A DNA stretch of 64,000 nt, from NCBI GenBank assembly GCA_049663465.1, contig JBATDM010000105.1:62-64061 (forward strand), written 5' to 3'. Both the position numbers and the translations under genes were made by a program. A model generated the notes under the pieces. That model was given only the letters and a program-made list of their open reading frames with translations. It made no database searches and was not told the DNA's origin. This document shows positions 2,981-49,300 of the stretch, one piece after another. The stretch comes from Pyrinomonadaceae bacterium. GTDB lineage: Bacteria; Acidobacteriota; Blastocatellia; Pyrinomonadales; Pyrinomonadaceae. Every line of letters begins with the position of its first letter. Position 1 is the stretch's first letter.

Positions 2981-3056
2981 AGTCTCTTAGCTCAGTTGGT
3001 AGAGCATTACCTTGACAAGGTAGGGGTCAGCAGTTCGAGTCTGCTAGAGACTACCA
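2981..3056 (+). tRNA. tRNA-Val (anticodon GAC)
   Basis: Hand-folded 76-nt cloverleaf. Acceptor AGTCTCT/AGAGACT, D arm GCTC..GAGC, anticodon arm TTACC-TTGACAA-GGTAG, T arm AGCAG-TTCGAGT-CTGCT, encoded CCA. Confidence 0.9.
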
Positions 3057-3068
3057 TTTTTTGAAAAT

Positions 3069-3137
3069 GTAGAATGCAGAATGATGAATGCAGAATTTTA
3101 TGATTCATCATTCGCAATTCGACATTCATAATTCCGG
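3069..3137. repeat. hairpin built from 7-nt words (GAATGNN / ATTCNNN)
   Basis: 5' words AGAATGC AGAATGA TGAATGC AGAATTT. 3' words ATTCATC ATTCGCA ATTCGAC ATTCATA ATTCCGG. Perfect 11-bp core stem 3079-3089/3103-3113. Confidence 0.8.
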
Positions 3138-3413: not shown

Positions 3414-5369
3414 ATGAGTGAACTAAACCTTAAATTTGGCGATAGGCAACTGGCCATCCCTGCGCCTGCGACGGTCATTGATGCGCTAAAAGCCTTCGAC
3501 CGCGACGTGTTGAAGAAGTCACTTGCTGCCAAAGTTAACGGCGAGGAAGTCGATCTGAATAAAGAACTTCCTGTAACGGCCGAAGTTTTATCGATCGAAC
3601 CGATCACCGCTGACACGGCTGACGGGCTCGAACTTTTGCGTCACTCGACCGCCCATCTGCTTGCGGCAGCGGTTCTCGAATTGTTCCCCGGAACGAAACT
3701 TGGCGTCGGGCCCGCGTTGATGGAAGATCCGCGATACGGCTTTTATTACGACGTCATCGCTCCGCGAAATCTGACCGAGGAAGATCTGCCGGTCATCGAA
3801 AAGAAGATGCGGGAGATGGCAAAGCGCGATCTTAAATATCGCCGCGACACCATTGACAAGGCAGCGATCCTAGAAATGTTCAAGGGGCGCGACGAACCGC
3901 TCAAATGCGAGCTGATCGACGAAAAGGTCAACGGGTGGGCAAGCGTCTATTACATCGACGGTTCGCCGTTCATCGATTTTTGCCTCGGGCCGCATGTCCA
4001 ACACACTGGCAAACTCAAAGCCTTCAAACTTTTAGCTCTCTCGGGCGCCTATTGGAAAGGCGATGCCGAACGCGAGCAGATGCAGCGAATTTATGGGACT
4101 GCGTTTGCATCACAGGACGAGCTCGACGCTTGGCTCAAACAACGCGAGGAAGCCGAAAAACGTGATCACCGCAAACTCGGCCGTGAACTCGACCTCTTCT
4201 CGATCGACGAGAACTACGGTCAGGGATTGATCCTCTGGCACCCTAAGGGCGGTATCGTCCGAATGGAGATGGAACGCCTGCTTCGTGAGGAGCTTGAACA
4301 GCGTGGATACAGTTTTGTATTTACGCCGCACATCGCCAAGCGAAACCTGTGGGTCACAAGCGGGCATGAAGGCAACTACTCAGATTCGATGTATGCACCG
4401 ACCAGCATAGAGGACGAGGAATATCGGCTAAAGCCGATGAATTGTCCCTTTCATATCGGTATTTACAAAGCCTCACCAAAATCTTACCGTGATCTGCCGC
4501 AGCGTTATTCTGAAATGGGCACTGTGTATCGAGCCGAACTTTCGGGAACGCTTCACGGTCTGATGCGTGTCCGCGGATTTTCGGTTGATGATGCTCATTT
4601 GTTCGTTCGCCCAGATCAAGTACACGCGGAGGTTGCGGATTGTCTGGATTTCGCGATAAAGGTTTTTGAGACCTACGGGTTTGAGAAGGTCAAATTTGAG
4701 CTTTCAGTCCGCGGCGGTGCGGAAAACAAAGGCTATCTTGGGGCGGATGAGGATTGGGTAGCCGCAGAAGAACAGCTTGCGAGTGCGCTTAACGAACGAG
4801 ATATCTCGTACGACCGCATCGAAGGTGAAGCCGCATTTTACGGCCCGAAGATCGATATTAAGATCGAGGACGCTATTGGCCGCGTTTGGCAGTTGGGAAC
4901 AATTCAGCTTGATTTCAATCTGCCGGAACGCTTTGAATTGGAATATACCGGCGATGATAACCTCAAGCATCGCCCGTTCATGATCCATCGGGCATTGTTT
5001 GGCTCGATCGAAAGATTTTTCGGTGTTCTGATCGAGCACTATGCCGGAGCATTCCCGCTATGGCTCGCTCCGGTACAGGTTGCTGTATTGCCGATCACCG
5101 ACCGCATCAACGAATACGCAGAAACTGTTGCGGCAGAGTTACGCAAGAGCGGATTTCGCGTAGAATCTAATACACGATCGGATAAGATCGGTGCTAAGAT
5201 ACGGGACGCTCAAATGCAGAAGATCCCGTATATGCTGATCCTCGGTGATCAAGAGCTTGAGAAAGGCGAGGTTGCCGTTCGCGAGCGTAAACAGGGAGAC
5301 ATCGGCACGATGTCTCTTGCAGAGTTCAAAGAGAAGATCACGGGCGAAAGATCGGCCCGCAGTCTCTGA
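3414..5369 (+). CDS. thrS: threonine--tRNA ligase
   Basis: Full-length ThrRS-like ORF with class II motifs ([26 protein letters not shown]) and an anticodon-binding C-terminus. Start set at ATG 3414 (MSELNLKF) because the ORF-track extension reads through the leader repeat. Confidence 0.95.
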
Positions 5370-5396
5370 GATCGTTAGTATTTTTTAGGAGGCCAT

Positions 5397-6116
5397 ATCG
5401 CAAGAAGATTCAATAGGTATAAGCCGCGGTTTCGTGAACCGCAGCACCGCACGAACGAACGAATTCGCGTTCCTTCAGTGCGAGTCGTGTTAGATGACGG
5501 CGGAACACTCGGTGTAATGGATACTCGTGACGCAATTCACGAAGCCAGAAATCGTGGGCTCGATTTGGTCGAGATCTCGCCGAATGGCCAACCGCCGGTG
5601 TGTAAGATCATCGACTATGGCAAGTTTCTTTACGAACAAAAGAAAAAGGCCCACGAGGCAAAGAAGAAACAGGTCACAGTTCAGGTCAAAGAGATCAAGT
5701 TTCGCCCCGGCACCGATGATCACGACTACGAATACCGAATGCAGCATGCCCGCGAATGGCTCGAGGGCGGCGATAAGGTCCGGGCGGCGATCGCATTTCG
5801 TGGACGCGAAATGTCGCACCGCGAGCTCGGAGCGAAGATCCTAAAGAGATTGACCGGCGATCTGGCGGATCTCGGCGACGTCGAGGTCTACCCAAAGATG
5901 GAAGGCTATCAGATGTTTACCATCTTGTCGCCAAAAAAGGCAAAGATAGCACCTGCGGGTAAGCACACGTCCGCGGCGCCGGACAAGAAGGACGTGGAAG
6001 AGCCGAAAGAAACGGTTCCGGCAAAAGAAAAGGAAAAGAAACCGGCCGCGAAGAAAACATCCACTAAGGCCGTGAAGGCTAAGGAAGAGCCAAAGCCCGA
6101 CGATGAGATATTTTAG
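5397..6116 (+). CDS. infC: translation initiation factor IF-3 with Lys-rich C-terminal extension
   Basis: IF-3 core (GLDLVEISPNGQPPVCKIIDYGKF). The frame is open back to the stop at 5376-5378. AGGAGG at 5387-5392 is followed by in-frame AUC at 5397. The start is uncertain; GTG 5478 is the ORF-track start. Confidence 0.85.
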   Translation: MARRFNRYKPRFREPQHRTNERIRVPSVRVVLDDGGTLGVMDTRDAIHEARNRGLDLVEISPNGQPPVCKIIDYGKFLYEQKKKAHEAKKKQVTVQVKEIKFRPGTDDHDYEYRMQHAREWLEGGDKVRAAIAFRGREMSHRELGAKILKRLTGDLADLGDVEVYPKMEGYQMFTILSPKKAKIAPAGKHTSAAPDKKDVEEPKETVPAKEKEKKPAAKKTSTKAVKAKEEPKPDDEIF

Positions 6117-6370: not shown

Positions 6371-6452
6371 GTAAAAAGGCAAAAGTAAAAAGGCAAAATT
6401 AGGAGTGAGACCTCTTATTTTTGACTTTTAACTTTTAACTTTTGCCTTTTTC
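6371..6452. repeat. hairpin built from 7-nt words (AAAAGNN / CTTTTNN) between rpmI and rplT
   Basis: 5' words AAAAGGC AAAAGTA AAAAGGC AAAATTA (6374-6401). 3' words TTTTTGA CTTTTAA CTTTTAA CTTTTGC CTTTTTC (6418-6452). The outer roughly 14 bp are perfectly complementary. Confidence 0.8.
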
Positions 6453-10835: not shown

Positions 10836-11052
10836 GGCGAAAGAATTTTGACTGCGGTTCTCGTTCACGGACGCAATTACAATTGAGCCAACATATGAAT
10901 GCCGGGAGGCTAATGCTGGTTGTCGGTGCTTTTCTCTACGGAGACGAGCCATAGAGACCGGCTTTGATATCGCGAAAGCGGTAGAAGGCCACCCACCTGT
11001 AAACTACAGGTTCAATTCATACGTTCGCACGAATCCGCGGTCCTCATTCGCC
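10836..11052 (+). ncRNA. ssrS: candidate 6S RNA (ssrS)
   Basis: Non-coding gap directly after zapA. A long bulged closing stem pairs GGCGAAAGAATTTTGACTGCGG (10836-) with CCGCGGTCCTCATTCGCC (-11052). There is an internal stem GCCGG/CCGGC (10901/10958) and a large unpaired central region with small hairpins (CGC-GAAA-GCG, CCTG-TAAACTA-CAGG). Confidence 0.45.
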
Positions 11053-11063
11053 ATTTATTATTT

Positions 11064-11090
11064 AGACGCTGCTTGGAGGCGTCTTTTCTT
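11064..11090 (+). terminator. rho-independent terminator
   Basis: AGACGC-TGCTTGGAG-GCGTCT followed by TTTTCTTT. It lies between the ncRNA candidate and the convergent gene ending at 11109. Confidence 0.5.
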
Positions 11091-11108
11091 TGCTTTGAGT
11101 CCTCTCAG

Positions 11109-11864
11109 TTAGATAGGATCTTTGCTTTCGAGTTCCAGTCTGATCTCGTCAGCCATTTTCGCAGCCTCGAGTGCTAGTGGAAGTTCGGATGTTCGCGCGG
11201 AGAGTTTCTTGAGTGCGATCTCGTTGTCAACCAGCGGGCCGCCTCTCGTTGCAGCCGCCTCGATCATTTGCAATCGAGCCTCAGCCTCAGACAGCATTAG
11301 GCGAGCCTCCTCATTGATGTTGGAGATCTTCGTGATATCGTCCGCAATTTGCTCCTGAAATTGTTCACTTTTTGCGGATTTTAGCTCCTTCAAGGAATTT
11401 TGACGGCGCTTTGCATAGACCAGTTCCCGTTTCGATGACCTCGCGATCCTGGTCGCGGTAAGGCGTGAAGCAAGGGTCTCGCGAAAGGCATCAGCGAGTA
11501 ACACGTCTCGTGCCTCAATTGCCTTGAGGGAGCGCTTCTCGGACGGCTTCAGTTCGTTGCGAAACCAATGTATTTCCTGGGCACTGATTCCGTTTGCGGC
11601 GATTCGCTCGCGCATTTCCTTTGTCCAAATGGAGCGTCGGCGGATCATCACAAAAGAGAGGACGAGTCCGATCAGCAATGCCAAGCCAGTTGCAACAGCC
11701 CCGACGAAAAGGATAACGGCCGCGACTGGTGGTCCGGAGGCGGCGAACAGCAGGAGCAGAAACGTGATCAACGCCGGCAAGATCGGCAAAAGAATAGGGG
11801 CGGCAAAGGCTCCAACCTTTAGCTTTTGTCCTCGCTTGATATCAATATCTCTATTCTCATTCAT
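11109..11864 (-). CDS. membrane protein with C-terminal coiled coil (hypothetical)
   Basis: 251-aa ORF with two N-terminal hydrophobic helices followed by a charged helical region. No family recognised. Confidence 0.5.
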   Translation of the reverse strand: MNENRDIDIKRGQKLKVGAFAAPILLPILPALITFLLLLFAASGPPVAAVILFVGAVATGLALLIGLVLSFVMIRRRSIWTKEMRERIAANGISAQEIHWFRNELKPSEKRSLKAIEARDVLLADAFRETLASRLTATRIARSSKRELVYAKRRQNSLKELKSAKSEQFQEQIADDITKISNINEEARLMLSEAEARLQMIEAAATRGGPLVDNEIALKKLSARTSELPLALEAAKMADEIRLELESKDPI

Positions 11865-30965: not shown

Positions 30966-31040
30966 GGCGCCTTCGTCTATCGGTTAGGACGCTAGGTTCT
31001 CAACCTGGAAAGAGGGGTTCAACTCCCCTAGGCGCTACCA
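30966..31040 (+). tRNA. tRNA-Glu (anticodon CTC)
   Basis: Hand-folded 75-nt cloverleaf. Acceptor GGCGCCT/AGGCGCT, TTCGTCTA D region typical of tRNA-Glu, anticodon arm CTAGG-TTCTCAA-CCTGG, T arm AGGGG-TTCAACT-CCCCT, encoded CCA. Confidence 0.9.
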
Positions 31041-31050
31041 CACAATATGT

Positions 31051-31128
31051 CGTGAGTCTTTGGTCTGAAGTTGATTCAACCCGGACAGCACGTAAGACTC
31101 ACGACTTTAGACTCAAGACTCAAAACAT
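31051..31128. repeat. hairpin plus period-7 word repeats (AGACTCN / GAGTCTN)
   Basis: Perfect 10-bp stem CGTGAGTCTT (31051-31060) / AAGACTCACG (31094-31103). 3' words AAGACTC ACGACTT TAGACTC AAGACTC. Nested GTTGA-T-TCAAC hairpin in the loop. Confidence 0.8.
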
Positions 31129-39841: not shown

Positions 39842-40384
39842 ATGGAACCCATGCCCCATCCACTAGAATCAAAATACGGGCTGACATCGCAAGAATTACT
39901 CGACGCAATCGATAAACGATTCCGGCTAAAAGTAGCACTCGAAGGTGCCGTTGCTGAGGTGCATTTTGAACGAAAGCTTCGGATTGCGAGCCGTGAGGGT
40001 TGGTTAACTAGTTATGAGGGGCATGATGTTGACGGGATGCATGACTTTACCGTTGTAACGCTCTCCGACGTGGCCATTCGGGTCGAAGTAAAGACGATAC
40101 GCAATGGCCCGAAGCCCAAGGTTGAATTACAAAAGACACGAGCCGCCAAGGGCGACCCCAGTAGCAGATACTACGACCTTACCCACTTTGATGTCGTCGC
40201 TGTCTGTGTCGGTCGTTTCACTGGCGACTGGTCTGAATTCCGATATGCTTTAGTGCGAGATTTGCCAAGTCACCGGAATCACCCTAAGAAGCTTCAGGTC
40301 ATGCACTCTATTCCCGACGCCGAGGATACAGAGCCGCGTTGGTTCTCACGCTTTCAGGATGTTATTGATGCCTATTCAGTTTGA
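39842..40384 (+). CDS. candidate type II restriction endonuclease (PD-(D/E)xK)
   Basis: 180-aa ORF overlapping the start of a DNA methyltransferase gene. D...E-x-K arrangement (HDFTVV ... IRVEVKT). No other family recognised. Confidence 0.5.
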
Positions 40385-41294
40385 ACATATTTACCAGACC
40401 GAGCTTGGAGCGATGTACTGTTCGGACAGCCTCGAATTCATGAGGCGTATGCCAAACGACTCGGTTGATTTGGTCGTAACGAGTCCGCCTTATGCACTTC
40501 ACTTCAAAAAGGAATATGGCAATGCTAATCAGGGCGATTACGTCTCTTGGATTCTTCCATTTGCGAAGGAAATCAAACGAATCATTAAGCCTTCAGGCTC
40601 GTTCGTTCTGAATATTGGCGGAGCCTGGCAGCCTGGTTCACCTGTCCGTAGTTTGTATCATTATAGAGTGCTAATGGCTCTTGTTGATGAAGTTGGCTTC
40701 GATCTGGCTCAAGAGTTTTTCTGGTACAATCCGGCAAAAATGCCCGCTCCCGCAGAATGGGTAAACGTACGTCGAATAAGGGTAAAGGACAGCGTTGAAT
40801 ATATCTATTGGCTTGTTAAAGACCCAATGGCTAATGCGGATAATCGAAATGTCCTTCAACCGTATAGTGACGACATGAAGCGTCTCATCAAACGCGGTGT
40901 GAAAGAAACCCTTAGACCAAGCGGCCATATGATAAAAACTAGTTTCGCAACTGACCAAGGCGGATCAATTCCCTCGAATCTAATACAATGTGGAAACACT
41001 GAATCAAATAGTGCCTATATCAAGAACAGCAAACTCGCTGGCAGTAAGATCCATCCGGCTCGGTATCCAGCAGATCTTCCCAAGTTTTTCATCGAATTTC
41101 TTACAAAACCGGGCGAACTTGTGCTTGATCCGTTTGCTGGCAGCAATACAACAGGACAAGTGGCTGAATCCTTGCGGAGAGAATGGATCGGAATTGAGAT
41201 AAGGGAAGATTACGCCGAGGAAAGTCGATTGCGGTTCGAGGGCGTTCCCGACGAAGTCGTCATCGCCCACGGCCAACAGCTTTTGCCTCTTTAA
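40368..41294 (+). CDS. DNA methyltransferase, beta-class N4/N6 (SPPY type)
   Basis: Motif IV TSPPY is N-terminal and motif [11 protein letters not shown] is C-terminal, followed by WIGIEI, giving beta-class order. The start could be 40359 or 40368. Confidence 0.85.
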
Positions 41295-41388
41295 CTTCAA
41301 CGGAAGTCACAGAAGTACGCTGAGACCCAGAGTCTTTGGGGGTTCCGCTTGTGGAATACTCATAACCCGCAATGAACCGACAAAGCCA

Positions 41389-41577
41389 ATGGTGCAGGAA
41401 GCGAAAGAAGCAGGCACGTTCAAACCCGAATTCTTCCAGCCGTTCGACAAACTCCAAATCGTAACCGTCCAACAGATCCTCCACGGCGAGAGAATGAATC
41501 TTCCGTTGATGGAAGAAGTCACCAAGAAAGCGCAAAAAGCATCAAAAACCAAACAAACCGGCCTCGCCTTTGAGTAA
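41389..41577 (+). pseudogene. possible C-terminal remnant of a second DNA methyltransferase
   Basis: The 62-aa ORF ...AKEAGTFKPEFFQPFDKLQIVTVQQILHGERMNLPL resembles the conserved C-terminal tail (..G.Y....yPkiQIlTieeLL.G..i.lP) of long adenine methyltransferases as I recall it. No upstream catalytic domain is present. Confidence 0.3.
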
Positions 41578-41619
41578 AAGGCGGTAAATGCTGGGCGAAA
41601 CGCTGTTCCTGTCGGACGT

Positions 41620-41829
41620 AGCGGCGTTCGCCAAGGACTCAGCGGCGCTCGCCAAGCACTCAGCGGCGTTCGCCAAGCACACAGCGAAGCTCGCTAAGCA
41701 CTCAGCGAAACTCGGCAAGGATTCAGCGAAGTTCGCGAACTACTCAGCGAAACTACGCAGGTATCTAGCGAAACTCTGCAACCACTCAGCGAAGCCTGCG
41801 ACCGACTCTGCGAAGCTCGCCAACCTGCC
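41620..41829. repeat. tandem array, 10 x 21 bp (consensus AGCGAAGCTCGCCAAGCACTC)
   Basis: Ten head-to-tail units counted by hand, starting at 41620, 41641, 41662, ... 41809. Each unit carries a GCGA-N3-TCGC-type inverted repeat. Degeneracy increases toward the 3' end. Confidence 0.9.
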
Positions 41830-41866
41830 ATCGACGTTCCCCGATAGATCGCGGACGAAAATTCTG

Positions 41867-41895
41867 TTGACTTTTATTTCATTCGGGAATATTAT
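41867..41895 (+). promoter_or_regulatory. sigma70-like promoter TTGACT-N17-TATTAT
   Basis: Hexamers at 41867-41872 and 41890-41895 with a 17-nt spacer, in an AT-rich stretch about 40 nt upstream of ATG 41937 (RBS AAGGAG). Confidence 0.35.
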
Positions 41896-41936
41896 TTTTT
41901 CCTTCCAACGACAAAATAAAAAAAGGAGATAACTCT

Positions 41937-42638
41937 ATGCCACAAGATTGGTACCCATCATCGCGGGATGCTCGGGCGGCTTGGCACGCGAATTTCGCGG
42001 CTCAGATCGGCGCTTTGGCGACGAAGTATGGAATTTCGGCGGGGACGCTGTTGCTGATTGCGGCGGACAACGCCTGGATGCAGTATTGGGTGCAGGCCCG
42101 CAGTGATGCGGACGCGCTCAAGCAACAGTTGACACAGTTTTTCAATATTATCTCCGGCAATGACGATTCGCTGCCGCAACCAGCTCCAATCAATTTTGCA
42201 CTCGCTCCCGATCCGGCAAATGAGGTGGCGCCGGGCATCGAGAAACGCGTTCGCGAGGTCGTGCGGCAAATCAAGGGCGATATGGAGTATTCCGTAGCGG
42301 ACGGCGAACTGCTCGGTATCGTCTCGCCCGCGAAAGAAGGCGGTCCGCTTGGCCCGGGCGATCTGGTCTCGCCGGAATTTGAGTTACGGACGCTTGCCGC
42401 GTTCGAGCTTGAGGCGAGATTTAAAAGGATGGGCAACGACGCGGTCAAATTCCAGTATCGCTATATTGGCGGCACTTGGATAACCGCCGCGACACTCCTC
42501 AGCAGCCCCGGAAGTTTTGCCATCCCGCCGTCCACACCGGGCGTCGGTCAGCAGATCGAGATCCGCGGCATCTTCCTAAAGGGCAACAAAGAGGTCGGCA
42601 TCTACTCCGACGCTAAATCCACGTTCATCGCACCGTAG
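41937..42638 (+). CDS. hypothetical protein (orphan)
   Basis: 233-aa ORF with a strong AAGGAGA RBS and a terminator downstream. No family recognised. The C-terminal half looks beta-rich. Confidence 0.55.
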   Translation: MPQDWYPSSRDARAAWHANFAAQIGALATKYGISAGTLLLIAADNAWMQYWVQARSDADALKQQLTQFFNIISGNDDSLPQPAPINFALAPDPANEVAPGIEKRVREVVRQIKGDMEYSVADGELLGIVSPAKEGGPLGPGDLVSPEFELRTLAAFELEARFKRMGNDAVKFQYRYIGGTWITAATLLSSPGSFAIPPSTPGVGQQIEIRGIFLKGNKEVGIYSDAKSTFIAP

Positions 42639-42655
42639 AACGCGAATACGTAAGA

Positions 42656-42690
42656 TAAAAAGCCGCCTTCACGACGAGGGCGGTTTTTTG
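42656..42690. terminator. bidirectional rho-independent terminator
   Basis: AAAAAGCCGCCTTC-ACGAC-GAGGGCGGTTTTTT. An 8-bp GC-rich stem with an A-run upstream and a T-run downstream, between convergent genes. Confidence 0.6.
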
Positions 42691-45817: not shown

Positions 45818-48800
45818 TCACTGACTCAGAGTTGCTTCAACCGGAACGGATATTGGCTCCCAGGCTGGTGAACCTTCATCAAAAAGATCGATCTCGTCCC
45901 CGTTGAGGTCGGGGGAAAGGCTAAAGCTTTCCGACGAACCATCCGCCGCACGCTCAGCCGCGACTTTTAAGAGCCTAATATCCTGGCCCGAAAGTCCCGC
46001 CAATCCGCCTGCTGTCAAAAGTTCCTCAAGAATTCGGTTGACCGACGACCTCATCGCTTCTGTTTCTGCCGCGTCGGCAAGAGCGGCGGCATTTGCCTTG
46101 AGCCGCGACTCGATCGTTGAAAGGCCATTTCCGATAGTTGAACGAAGCTGCGTCGGAAGATCCTTTAGACGTCGGTGCCCCGATAGACTAAACGAACAAT
46201 TGCAAAATGGCTGTTCGAGCAGTATCTCATCCGTATTCGCGCCGCACCGCAACTGCCGTATCTCACGGATCAGCGAGCGAGACTTTGTAACAAATCGCTG
46301 GTCTGCCCACACGATCCGGTAGAGACTCTCAAACGCCGACCACTCGGGCGAGGCGAGGATATTTCTCAGATCATCCGCGACCGCATCTTTCCCCATGATC
46401 GAGCTATGTTTCTCGACATAATACGCAGAATATGTCCCGAGAAAATTCTGCCACAAGTTCTCAACCTGGCTCACATCGCTCGCGTTCGCCCAGAAGGTCG
46501 ACGGATCTATAGCCGCAAGCAGGGATTTGCGTGCCGATTCAACCTCGGCATTATCGGTCACCTCACAAACAGAAAGATACGACGCTATGGCTGTCCGGCG
46601 GCCAACGCCCTTTGTAAACTCACCGAGAGTACGAAGCTCATTTCGCTTTTTCTCAAATTCAGGCTCTGAATCCGAAAAATGTTCAGCGATGGCATGGAGA
46701 GCGTCATCAAGCGATATTTCGTCCTTGACCAAGCGGTCGATCACTTCGGCCATCGAGCCAAAGGTCTTTTTTAGGCTTGCCGCAGTCCGCCATATTTGAG
46801 CATTCAGATTCTCGTCCGGTAACGCATCAAAATCGGCGAGTACGCTGCTCTCCTTCCAGGCAGAGAGCCAACCGGACAACGAGTCAATTATCAGAAGCCG
46901 ATCTTCTGCTCTATCGAGGGACTTGATGCCCGAGTTGCCGGTTGTAAGTTTGGCCCAAGCCAACAGCCTGTCAGGAGCATAGGCCTCATTTAGAGGGTTC
47001 GCCAGGCCAACGATGTCTTCCCAAATGATACGAAGATCGAGCGACCTGTGGCTGATTCGATTTCCGTTCGCCGTTACGAATTCGAATTGACGCTGCGAAA
47101 CAAGTGCGACCATTATTAGCCGCATTGCTTCTCGAGTCAGACCAAAGGGTTGTTCCCCGAAAAGCCTGGCGATAGCGGACAATTCGATCGGCGAACCGTC
47201 ATTCTTTCCGATCGCCTCAAAAGTAGAATTGACGACCGGCAGGGCGGTCAAAATGTCATTCGCTGATGGGACGTAACTTTCACCTTGCTTGATGGCAACA
47301 CCCAGCGGCACCGCAAATGTCTCAGCAAGACCCTGACTATCCGCATTATTTACGCCGCCACCGCCAAAAAAATCAGCGATCAGGGCGGAACAGCGTTTGT
47401 CGTCAAGAACATTGCTAAAACGCGGGTGCTCCGGATATCGTTGCTCGAAAATTGGAGCAAGGGCTTCCGATAGAAGGTGCGTGAGACCATGGGCTGCAAC
47501 CGACGATCCTGCAAATGGATATTCGGCCCCGTCAGCCAGCAATCTTGCTTCTTCAAAGAAGATCCTCTGCCAGATCTTCTCAACCCCCATATTATGGACG
47601 TGAACCGCGGTAGCTAATCCGTCACCAAGACTCTCCCGCACTCCTGCATCCACCTGCATGAGGTGATGACGTTGGATCAGTTCCTTTTCATCCGGCGCCA
47701 GCTCCGCAATTTTCCAAATAATTTCGCCGGGCACTGGTTCCGGAATTGAATCTGCAAAACTTAGGCGGACTATCCAATCCAGATCCTGCGTTATGGCAAC
47801 TCCATTAGAATTCCAGATCACCGCCCCGCGCCGGATTCCACCACGCCACTCTACCGTGCAGAACGTCGAGCGAATCTCAGAGCTTGCGGACATCCCGGCA
47901 TCAGCAAATTTATCAGCGGTCACCTTTAGCAAGACATCGGAAATGACCTCATCGCCAACCGTCCCTAAAGCACTCGCCATGACGTCGCCCACTTCAGATT
48001 TCGCGATCAATCTAAAGCAATACTTTGGCGGACGGTCGTCCTGTTCGACCTTCACTATTGCACCGGGAATAGCTTCGACGCACGTGTCGAGGAGTTCGCC
48101 AACGTTAATTGACATCGAGCTGCCGTCATCGGCAAATATCATCATCGATGCTGCGATCTCCGCACTTGTGGTGCCCTGTCCATTCAGCGAGAGCATGAGC
48201 AGGCCTTTCAAGAGGAGCTTTGCATGTAACCGTTGGTGGACCGGCATTTTCGACACAACTTGCTGTTCTATCGAATCAAACGACACAAAGGCATCAGACA
48301 ACTCAGGTACGGCCCGCAATTTCTTCTCTACACTGTCGTACACTTCATCCAGCCCGATCAGGGAGTTGGCCGGACGTCCGAGAATTCTAACTCCGGCTTC
48401 GGCCGCAAAGCCGAGAAGTGCAAAGTCGTGGACGTACAGCCGGATCAACGGAGCGATCTCGACGGTTGCTGGATGCAAGGGATAGAGTGAAGTGAAACGC
48501 TGCTCACTCCAGCGAAATCCCGGCATTACCTGCCGATAATATTCGTAGATCTCGCGAAGCAGTGGAAGCTGCTGACTGTGCTTGGTAAATATGTGCGCAT
48601 CAACGATCTTGTAGAGGTGTTCCTGATCAAGATAGTCAATGGTAAAGCTCGCCGAGATCGAAGAATTTGGCCCGTCCGCCCCTGAAATATCATCGTCGAG
48701 AGCCACACCAACAAAAATCCCGAGCGTATCTGCGGCATCTGCGACCTCGCTGATCAGCGGCCCGTCGTCTCGAGATACCCTGGTTTCCCGGCCAAGTGCA

Positions 48801-49300
48801 GTGTCTATGAGGACAACAAGAGGTGAGTCGCCGGCATGCTCCGAAGCTCGCAATAAGAGGTCATAGAGCGAGTCGCTCAGTGTGCCGGGATTAACTCCCA
48901 ACAGCTCAGCAACCGCGAGTCTAAGCTCGTCTACCAGCGATATGCCAACGCCACGGCGAACCGCGACGACGCATCCATGTCTTCGTGAGAGGCGATCCGC
49001 ACTCGCGGCGACATAGGGATGACCGATCTTCGGCCGGAGCTCCGGATTTGCGACCAAGGCCCAAATGACAGAGAGAAAATGGCTCTTTCCAACCCCTCGA
49101 AACCCTGCAAGCGCGAGAGCAGCCCCCTGTCCCGGTTTGACGCGAGAAATGGCTTCGATCCATTTCCCCATCAAGTCGGCTGTAATATCGGTAAAATGAT
49201 AGCCGGCCAGCGTAAGTGCTGGGTCCGCGCCAAAATCGTTCAGGTGCGTAAACGGACGCACCTCGACGATGTCTCTTACCTTTTCTGCGACACGCTTCAT
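45818..49300 (-). CDS. large P-loop NTPase, BrxC/PglY-like (DUF499/DUF6079-like), orphan
   Basis: 1160-aa ORF. Walker A context LAGFRGVGKSHFLSVIWAL closely matches the GFFGSGKSHFLK context of BrxC as I recall it. A Walker B-like PLVVLIDT follows. The long helical C-terminal region contains CGANTDEILLEQPFCNC. Confidence 0.55.
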   Translation of the reverse strand: MKRVAEKVRDIVEVRPFTHLNDFGADPALTLAGYHFTDITADLMGKWIEAISRVKPGQGAALALAGFRGVGKSHFLSVIWALVANPELRPKIGHPYVAASADRLSRRHGCVVAVRRGVGISLVDELRLAVAELLGVNPGTLSDSLYDLLLRASEHAGDSPLVVLIDTALGRETRVSRDDGPLISEVADAADTLGIFVGVALDDDISGADGPNSSISASFTIDYLDQEHLYKIVDAHIFTKHSQQLPLLREIYEYYRQVMPGFRWSEQRFTSLYPLHPATVEIAPLIRLYVHDFALLGFAAEAGVRILGRPANSLIGLDEVYDSVEKKLRAVPELSDAFVSFDSIEQQVVSKMPVHQRLHAKLLLKGLLMLSLNGQGTTSAEIAASMMIFADDGSSMSINVGELLDTCVEAIPGAIVKVEQDDRPPKYCFRLIAKSEVGDVMASALGTVGDEVISDVLLKVTADKFADAGMSASSEIRSTFCTVEWRGGIRRGAVIWNSNGVAITQDLDWIVRLSFADSIPEPVPGEIIWKIAELAPDEKELIQRHHLMQVDAGVRESLGDGLATAVHVHNMGVEKIWQRIFFEEARLLADGAEYPFAGSSVAAHGLTHLLSEALAPIFEQRYPEHPRFSNVLDDKRCSALIADFFGGGGVNNADSQGLAETFAVPLGVAIKQGESYVPSANDILTALPVVNSTFEAIGKNDGSPIELSAIARLFGEQPFGLTREAMRLIMVALVSQRQFEFVTANGNRISHRSLDLRIIWEDIVGLANPLNEAYAPDRLLAWAKLTTGNSGIKSLDRAEDRLLIIDSLSGWLSAWKESSVLADFDALPDENLNAQIWRTAASLKKTFGSMAEVIDRLVKDEISLDDALHAIAEHFSDSEPEFEKKRNELRTLGEFTKGVGRRTAIASYLSVCEVTDNAEVESARKSLLAAIDPSTFWANASDVSQVENLWQNFLGTYSAYYVEKHSSIMGKDAVADDLRNILASPEWSAFESLYRIVWADQRFVTKSRSLIREIRQLRCGANTDEILLEQPFCNCSFSLSGHRRLKDLPTQLRSTIGNGLSTIESRLKANAAALADAAETEAMRSSVNRILEELLTAGGLAGLSGQDIRLLKVAAERAADGSSESFSLSPDLNGDEIDLFDEGSPAWEPISVPVEATLSQ

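Follow-up and report, generated by a model that had tools for sequence, protein, structure and literature searches.

A non-coding array of 21-bp repeats accompanies a family of ~230-aa proteins in Pyrinomonadaceae and related Acidobacteria

Introduction

Tandem repeats of variable number (VNTRs) lie upstream of the promoters of several bacterial genes, as do the TTTTGAT heptads upstream of Vibrio cholerae ctxAB, the 7-bp repeats upstream of the Haemophilus influenzae hmw genes and the T-tract upstream of Helicobacter pylori sabA. In such contingency or rheostat loci the repeats sit just upstream of the core promoter of a single gene, their copy number differs between close strains, and the expected effect is on the level of transcription. 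Direct repeats are also found in three other kinds of system. The iterons of plasmids and phages, direct repeats of 17-22 bp, are spaced by ~21-22 bp and occur in 4-14 copies; beyond them come an AT-rich stretch and the promoter of the neighbouring gene, which encodes a winged-helix Rep protein. Their sequence differs between replicons while the spacing is kept. Type III TA systems (ToxIN, CptIN, TenpIN) carry short direct repeats of about 34-45 nt, diverging in sequence, immediately 5' of a protein gene. MIRU-VNTRs are intergenic repeats of tens of bp with strain-level variation in copy number; MIRUs form dispersed families with one sequence, located between the genes of operons, and an ORF can run through the repeats and end at the start of the next gene.

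Here we describe a tandem array of 21-bp units located 5' of a gene for a 233-aa protein in a Pyrinomonadaceae bacterium, together with its counterparts in related loci. Throughout, the window denotes the whole stretch of DNA that was analysed, 64,000 nt in length. The array resembles contingency VNTRs in its position, just upstream of what is here a predicted core promoter, and in the effect on transcription that would be expected. It is unlike them in that its unit is much longer (21 bp, or two helical turns), in that its presence is conserved over a deeply diverged gene family whereas its sequence is not, and in that it has no known binding factor and no known link to pathogens or surface antigens. 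Its copy number may differ between close relatives, one of four sets of near-identical metagenome assemblies showing a difference of 21 bp. With iterons it shares spacing, copy number, the AT-rich stretch with the adjacent promoter, and a sequence that changes while the spacing stays; however, the adjacent protein is not a winged-helix Rep and matches no Rep family. An iteron-type origin was considered and rejected, given that there is no Rep gene, no DnaA box near the array of the window, and no homologue in plasmid, phage or IMG/VR collections, and that the neighbours are chromosomal housekeeping genes.

The likeness to type III TA systems lies in the short direct repeats of diverging sequence immediately 5' of a protein gene. 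In contrast to these systems, the units measure 21 nt, the predicted promoter is usually found between array and gene, no terminator was predicted between them in the window, and the orientation of the array is not fixed; moreover, the protein is not of the ToxN, AbiQ, CptN or TenpN type, as it has no Pfam or PADLOC match and its model combines a helical with an FN3-like domain. The array also resembles MIRU-VNTRs as an intergenic repeat with copy-number variation, and in the window and in the related locus L006 an ORF passes through the repeats and ends at the start of the next gene, but its unit is specific to each locus and it goes with one gene family. A full-text literature search found no published description of the module formed by the array and the gene.

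Results

The array extends over positions 41599-41850 of the window, with no strand assigned, as delimited by Tandem Repeats Finder, direct reading and a repeat search. Direct reading gives ten clear in-register units at 41620-41829, with the consensus AGCGAAGCTCGCCAAGCACTC and a GC content of 0.60, while the repeat search adds one degenerate 21-bp unit on each side (41599-41619 and 41830-41850); Tandem Repeats Finder reports 41628-41823 with period 21, 9.3 copies, 72% matches and a 63-bp super-period. The ten head-to-tail units described in an initial annotation of this DNA are thus borne out, and so is their degeneration toward the 3' side, that is, toward the gene (Spearman rho -0.67). This polarity is confined to the locus in the window, since no consistent trend was found across related arrays. 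A search for further copies of the 21-mer returned none within the 64-kb window, with 0 expected by chance. The annotation's dismissal of a CRISPR array likewise stands: the units run head to tail and no spacers separate them. We reject that candidate on the absence of spacers and of cas-like genes among the scanned neighbours.

Two finer details of the annotation did not hold. The inverted repeat GCGA-N3-TCGC, said to be present in each unit, is exact only in units 4, 6 and 10. A 4-bp dyad within a 21-mer is present in 32% of shuffled units, and the palindrome was discarded as a special feature because it occurs at chance level in that comparison. The division of the unit into three 7-nt words finds no counterpart in the autocorrelation, which has no signal at shifts 7 or 14. 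Tandem heptamer runs are themselves common in these genomes, for example in the window at 3066-3096, 31094-31123 and 6371-6443, in L022 at 11300-11370, in L031 at 3860-3936 and 4708-4813, and in L034 at 4848-4937. They often consist of two inverted runs able to form a long hairpin and occupy terminator-like positions, right after tRNA-Val (2981-3056), tRNA-Glu (30966-31040) and protein genes. We regard them as unrelated to the 21-bp arrays because the latter have no 7-nt periodicity.

In the window the module begins with the array, which is followed by a sigma-70-like promoter, a short leader carrying a strong Shine-Dalgarno site, the gene and a terminator. The predicted promoter for the downstream gene, TTGACT-N17-TATTAT (10/12 matches to the consensus), lies on the + strand at 41867-41895, 38 nt past the array, exactly where the initial annotation had placed it. 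It is followed by the Shine-Dalgarno sequence AAGGAGA, read directly from the sequence at 41923-41929 (+), 7 nt 5' of the ATG; AGGAGG-like sites occur at the equivalent position in all related loci. The gene for the 233-aa protein, the conserved partner of the array, occupies 41937-42638 (+) and is defined by its ORF, its homologues and a structure model. Directly after its stop codon comes an intrinsic-terminator-like hairpin, GCCGCC...GGCGG followed by T6, at 42662-42689 (+), which the terminator scan detected on the - strand as well; because of this hairpin the gene looks monocistronic. Between the array and the gene, no terminator was predicted on the + strand.

On the other side, a type II-like DNA methyltransferase gene, assigned by family match, lies to the left of the array at 40359-41294. 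The initial annotation spoke of an R-M cassette at this place. Its methyltransferase is clear, but the partner is not, as the 180-aa ORF beside it has no family match in Pfam, PHROG, NCBIfam or PADLOC. Between this cassette and the array sits a reading frame of 91 codons at 41302-41577 (+), which forms the left border of the intergenic region of the array. It has no start codon, ends with TAA at 41575-41577, and its translation contains ...FGGSACGILITRNEPTKPMVQEAKEAGTF...QIVTVQQILHGERMNLP...; by tblastn it matches an annotated plasmid 'DNA methyltransferase' (E 8e-4). Judging from its reading frame and this match, it is probably a pseudogene fragment, the C-terminal remnant of a second DNA methyltransferase beside the intact gene at 40359-41294. 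Elsewhere in the window, a 1,160-aa ORF at 45818-49300 (-) weakly resembles BrxC/PglY, the P-loop protein of BREX/DISARM (PADLOC E 2e-9), with a match that falls far short of the NCBIfam cut-off. The methyltransferase cassette is 3 kb away, so that the two may belong to a small defence island. The window also holds three strongly expressed tRNA genes, none of which has such an array.

The array could itself be taken for coding DNA. As the initial annotation had noted, a 114-aa ORF at 41588-41932 (+) reads it in frame as heptads, (SAKLAKH)n, and gene callers annotate this ORF as a protein. Since related loci have conserved no counterpart of this ORF, we judge that it is not a gene. The heptad-repeat protein that the annotation had entertained was rejected on the frames, starts and stops of 20 related loci. 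In five of these 20 (L017, L019, L024, L027 and L028) all three + frames contain stops within the array, and in six more (L004, L005, L007, L009, L016 and L021) the sole open frame has no ATG, GTG or TTG. Coding in all members is excluded by L017 and L024, whose period of 22/43 is not a multiple of 3. The translated heptads are unrelated to one another (AKLAKHS, AEHLAEP, GTSVRSR, KTRRAEW, NFAGSLx) and often incompatible with a helix, and the ORF in the window has no protein family match.

It might still be argued that ORF 41588-41932 is a real heptad-repeat gene whose length varies by slippage, given that no stop interrupts it within the array, that it has an ATG and ends 4 nt short of the ATG of the next gene, that L006 has a similar arrangement, and that a period of 21 equals seven codons. 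Set against this are the stops in all frames at five loci, the missing start codons at six, the two arrays of period 22, heptads that differ in charge and contain proline or glycine, the absence of any family match, and a predicted promoter that falls inside the ORF. We consider the chance that it is a gene next to negligible, and a heptad-repeat protein as a conserved feature is already refuted. Gene calls derived from the array are best regarded as artefacts, including those in P0029 and P0042, where it is fused to the downstream gene.

Homologous loci were gathered from genome and metagenome collections and through exact-protein look-ups. For the association count, 24 distinct loci with sufficient upstream DNA were available out of ~1,500 family clusters; these loci are all metagenome-assembled, and their repeats may be mis-assembled. 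An array was scored when Tandem Repeats Finder detected it with a period of 21-22 and no fewer than 3 copies in the 900 nt before the start codon. Such an array precedes the gene in 23 of the 24 loci, and the remaining one (L028) carries a decayed array with an autocorrelation of 0.50 at shift 21. By comparison, the other ~225 kb examined contained only three comparable arrays, or about 1 per 75 kb. The link between array and gene also holds in a subfamily whose proteins are 27% identical to that of the window (L029, L031, L033 and L034). The gene neighbourhoods are wholly different among loci (accC/greA/pfk; tsaD/rsfS; RHS toxins; sigma factors; mla genes), and across the loci examined no second gene and no regulator gene is conserved beside the module. 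The array is therefore an ancient, nearly obligatory 5' companion of the ~230-aa protein family, and the two form a self-contained module in unrelated genomic neighbourhoods. The initial annotation had suggested an iterated operator that controls the downstream gene. The core of this suggestion, a cis-acting array tied to the gene, is upheld by its occurrence in 23-24 of the 24 loci and by its usual position, ending just upstream of a sigma-70-like promoter. A classical iterated operator is not, because no motif is common to the arrays and the palindromic core is not general.

Arrays of this kind are not limited to the gene family. L005 carries at 5208-5502, between two convergent genes, 14 copies of AGTTCCGGGCGTAAGATTCCG, and L022 carries five units of 42 bp at 10928-11147, with a 9-bp hairpin in each, ~75 nt 5' of a tRNA gene; neither is linked to the family. 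As similar 21/42-bp arrays occur at two or three unrelated places, the period may be a trait of the lineage rather than a property of the module. In L010 and L018 (second paralogue in the MAG of L012) the contig ends 164 nt upstream of the gene, a break that would be expected at this point if an unresolved repeat array had stopped the assembly.

Across loci, the period is the most regular property of the arrays. Of the arrays, 22 have a period of 21, and L017 and L024 one of 22/43; over 22 arrays the autocorrelation reaches 0.68 at shift 21 and 0.67 at shift 42, against background values of 0.27 and 0.25 at shifts 7 and 14. The arrays comprise ~4-14 units, and their GC content ranges from 0.42 to 0.68. 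The unit sequence is particular to each locus, and paralogues each have their own; no k-mer of 4-6 nt occurs in more than half of the arrays, and none in all. Two genome stretches (L005 and L022) each contain two different arrays without a common unit.

Units were compared pairwise, over all rotations and on both strands, and the maximum of the shuffled null was 14/21 in 400 comparisons. Beyond this null, L004 and L012 match at 17/21, and matches of 15/21 join the window with L006, L012 with L019, L017 with L023, L012 with L024, and L016b with L028. Because cross-locus similarity of the units exceeds that of shuffled units, we infer common descent with rapid turnover. The match between L004 and L012 holds only as reverse complement, the same orientation giving 12/21, and three of the 15/21 pairs are likewise reverse-complement matches. 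The orientation of the array relative to the gene is thus not conserved, at least one array being inverted, and such freedom fits an element of DNA rather than of RNA or peptide.

Turnover is also seen among close relatives. Among three near-identical assemblies of one species, the array of L025 is one 21-bp unit shorter than those of L026 and L006, with flanks that are >99% identical, although these are metagenome assemblies, which can collapse repeats. Copy number is equal within the near-identical sets formed by the window with L001 and L002, by L012 with L020, and by L029 with L030, so that it differs in one of four sets. L006 and L009 share a 165-nt leader at ~95% identity and the gene at ~70%, whereas their arrays cannot be aligned, which indicates that the array evolves at least as fast as unconstrained DNA. 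Decayed arrays are found in L028 and L003.

In 13 of 21 related loci a consensus scan predicts a sigma-70-like promoter in the spacer that separates the array from the gene, and in the window, L012, L016, L023, L027 and L028 its -35 element starts 12-51 nt after the last unit. In 7-8 loci none was found at this position (L003, L006/L025, L009, L011, L019 and L021, and L022 by a strict scan). In L003, L006/L025, L009, L011, L019 and L021 the array extends to the Shine-Dalgarno site. In the clade of L006 and L009 a predicted promoter and the conserved 165-nt leader lie upstream of the array, which would accordingly be transcribed there. As far as promoter prediction can tell, then, the array usually, though not always, lies in non-transcribed spacer DNA.

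The 165-nt stretch directly upstream of the array (L006 4575-4745, L009 4531-4704, L025 4590-4765) begins just past a conserved TTGACA/TTGAAC...TATTTT promoter. Within it, an 11-codon ORF (MNIYIPAREYM) comes after an AGGAGG; no Rfam family matches the stretch, which could function as a small RNA or as a structured leader. A different subfamily of the gene has a conserved 5' untranslated region of ~200 nt, 85-89% identical, after a TTGC..-TATAAT promoter (L015 906-1143, L016 184-382, L017 2607-2826, L024 about 4820-4990). With its 9-bp stem, TTATCTGAC...GTCAGATAA, this region may be a cis-regulatory RNA. In two unrelated loci a MITE-like insert lies between array and gene (L004 about 4770-4950, L008 about 250-400), with terminal inverted repeats TTTAATAGCGTCGGG...CCCGACGCTATTAAA and GTCCCTnnnAGGGAC hairpins, and similar hairpin-rich DNA occupies this place in L024. 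The spacer between array and promoter thus tolerates insertions. In L012 the module of array and gene is bracketed by two Acido-Lenti-1 RNA motifs (Rfam RF01687, above the gathering score) in the same orientation, at 4282-4329 and 5719-5766 (-).

The proposal in the initial annotation that the array forms a structured RNA of ~10 mini stem-loops found no support in the fold scores, in the dyads, which are at chance level, or in the orientation, which is not fixed. Compared with dinucleotide shuffles, the RNA of the array in the window gave z +0.72 for the + strand and -1.49 for the - strand, and the perfect-dyad test of consensus units against shuffled units gave Fisher p 0.26. When all arrays were compared with plain dinucleotide shuffles, the fold z-scores were strongly negative. 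Because this null ignores repetitiveness, we applied a column-permutation null, in which the same permutation is used in every unit and repetitiveness is kept. Under this null the self-complementarity of the arrays has a mean z of -1.4, with 9 of 22 arrays at or below the 5% level (Wilcoxon p 0.008 and 0.003). The two strands show it to the same extent, and this speaks for DNA dyads rather than strand-specific RNA. Eight arrays, including that of the window, show no excess; strong dyads occur in L007, L009 and L024 at the level of the unit and in L011, L017, L019 and L021 at the level of the array. No known RNA family was matched in the array (Rfam).

The downstream gene had been called an orphan, a description that does not survive database searches. 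Homologues numbered 55 by a word-indexed search and at least 178 by a profile search, and an exhaustive HMMER scan returned 1,496 representative clusters at E <= 1e-3, nearly all of ~230 aa. The hosts of the family are Pyrinomonadaceae and related Acidobacteria. The 233-aa protein has no family match in Pfam, PHROG, NCBIfam or PADLOC. Its AlphaFold2 model (pLDDT 93.5, from a 50-sequence alignment) has an N-terminal helical domain of two long and two short helices (residues 10-126), then a flexible linker, and a C-terminal beta-sandwich (residues 148-231) that matches FN3 domains generically in PDB sequence and fold searches. Modelled alone (pLDDT 90), the N-terminal domain has no PDB fold match, and among viral structures the best match of the protein is to a phage protein that is itself uncharacterised. 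Phage, plasmid and IMG/VR collections yielded no homologue, and an origin from a mobile element was rejected on this ground. The family is acidic (median pI 5.1). Given this acidity, the FN3-like fold and a helical domain without structural match, the protein is unlikely to bind the array; nothing points to nucleic-acid binding.

Discussion

The array does not code for protein; across loci it retains its period and its repetitive character, whereas sequence, orientation and copy number vary. We suggest, with a probability of roughly 40%, that it is a promoter-upstream VNTR that modulates transcription of the adjacent gene at the DNA level. On this proposal the array would act in cis on the adjacent promoter through its geometry and not through a sequence motif, an idea that we favor because repetition at two helical turns (21 bp) is all that is kept. 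Phase-locked presentation of the units on the same face of the helix might lead to additive curvature or, alternatively, an architectural protein might bind cooperatively. Gain or loss of 21-bp units would then tune the transcription level of the downstream gene. A wedge model, which is indicative only, assigns any tandem 21-bp unit an in-phase bend of ~18 degrees per unit. In this model the curvature of real units does not exceed that of shuffled ones (mean percentile 0.51); hence curvature is not visibly optimised. It should also be noted, against the geometric reading, that conservation of the period could be passive inheritance under concerted evolution.

One rival is that the array has no function at all, being a self-perpetuating minisatellite or a recurrent by-product of mutation in a very active promoter region, in a repeat-prone lineage, tolerated in non-essential upstream DNA. 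These genomes are indeed rich in tandem repeats (periods 7, 14, 21 and 42), the array evolves faster than the flanking leader and gene, it has decayed at L028 and L003, and it displays no conserved motif, no optimised curvature and no consistent polarity of decay. That an array is kept in 23-24 of 24 loci, with proteins as little as 27% identical, is nevertheless hard to reconcile with neutrality, given that arrays can collapse to one copy, from which regrowth is not easy; the background is only ~1 array per 75 kb, and the strongly expressed tRNA genes of the window, three in number, have none. We therefore regard a functionless array as unlikely, if worth keeping in mind. A rather improbable alternative is that the array works as RNA, either as a 5' leader or as a separate repeat RNA that regulates or partners the downstream protein, following the logic of type III TA. 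Such a role would agree with direct repeats of divergent sequence but conserved architecture immediately 5' of a protein gene, with the clade of L006, L025, L026 and L009, where a promoter and the 95%-identical 165-nt leader precede an array that reaches the ribosome-binding site, and with the mildly raised self-complementarity of the arrays as a set (mean z -1.4; 9/22 at the 5% level or below). It is at odds with an orientation that is not conserved relative to the gene, with self-complementarity that is the same on both strands, and with a best predicted promoter that is downstream of the array in 13 of 21 loci. Moreover, the RNA of the array in the window folds no better than shuffles on either strand, Rfam gives no match, no terminator was found between array and gene, and the acidic, FN3-like protein has neither a ToxN-like nor another RNase fold.

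A sequence-specific protein, either the gene product or another factor, could instead recognise the array as an iterated operator or iteron and co-evolve with it, and cooperative binding every 21 bp would repress or activate the adjacent promoter. A spacing of 21-22 bp, a copy number of 4-14 and a location beside the -35 element recall iterons and tandem OmpR/ToxR sites; a subset of arrays has strong dyads (L007, L009 and L024; L011, L017, L019 and L021), and each paralogue has its own unit sequence. However, the arrays have no motif in common, not even those within one genome stretch (L005, L022), and dyads are absent from the array of the window and from seven others. No regulator gene is conserved beside the module, the product is acidic and without a known DNA-binding fold, and the chromosomal context, with no DnaA box and no Rep-like gene, is not that of an iteron; we hold out only a small chance for this explanation. 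With similar reserve we mention the bolder thought that the array and the FN3/helical gene constitute an undescribed two-part system, widespread in Acidobacteria, in which an array free of sequence constraint, with a 21-bp period, is a required partner and its geometry is under selection. The role of the array might then be that of a repeat RNA, of a DNA scaffold for assembly of the protein or a host factor, or alternatively of a built-in switch that individualises the expression of each paralogue.

If the array is indeed functional, it would be a cis element defined by period and repetitiveness rather than by sequence, kept while the protein diverged to 27% identity. Elements of such a kind are missed by searches based on motifs or alignments. 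The array would further allow one to ask, in a natural setting, whether selection on bacterial promoter-upstream DNA can act on helical phasing alone (21 bp, two turns), and it would open a way into how a large and wholly uncharacterised family of proteins from soil and wastewater Acidobacteria is regulated.
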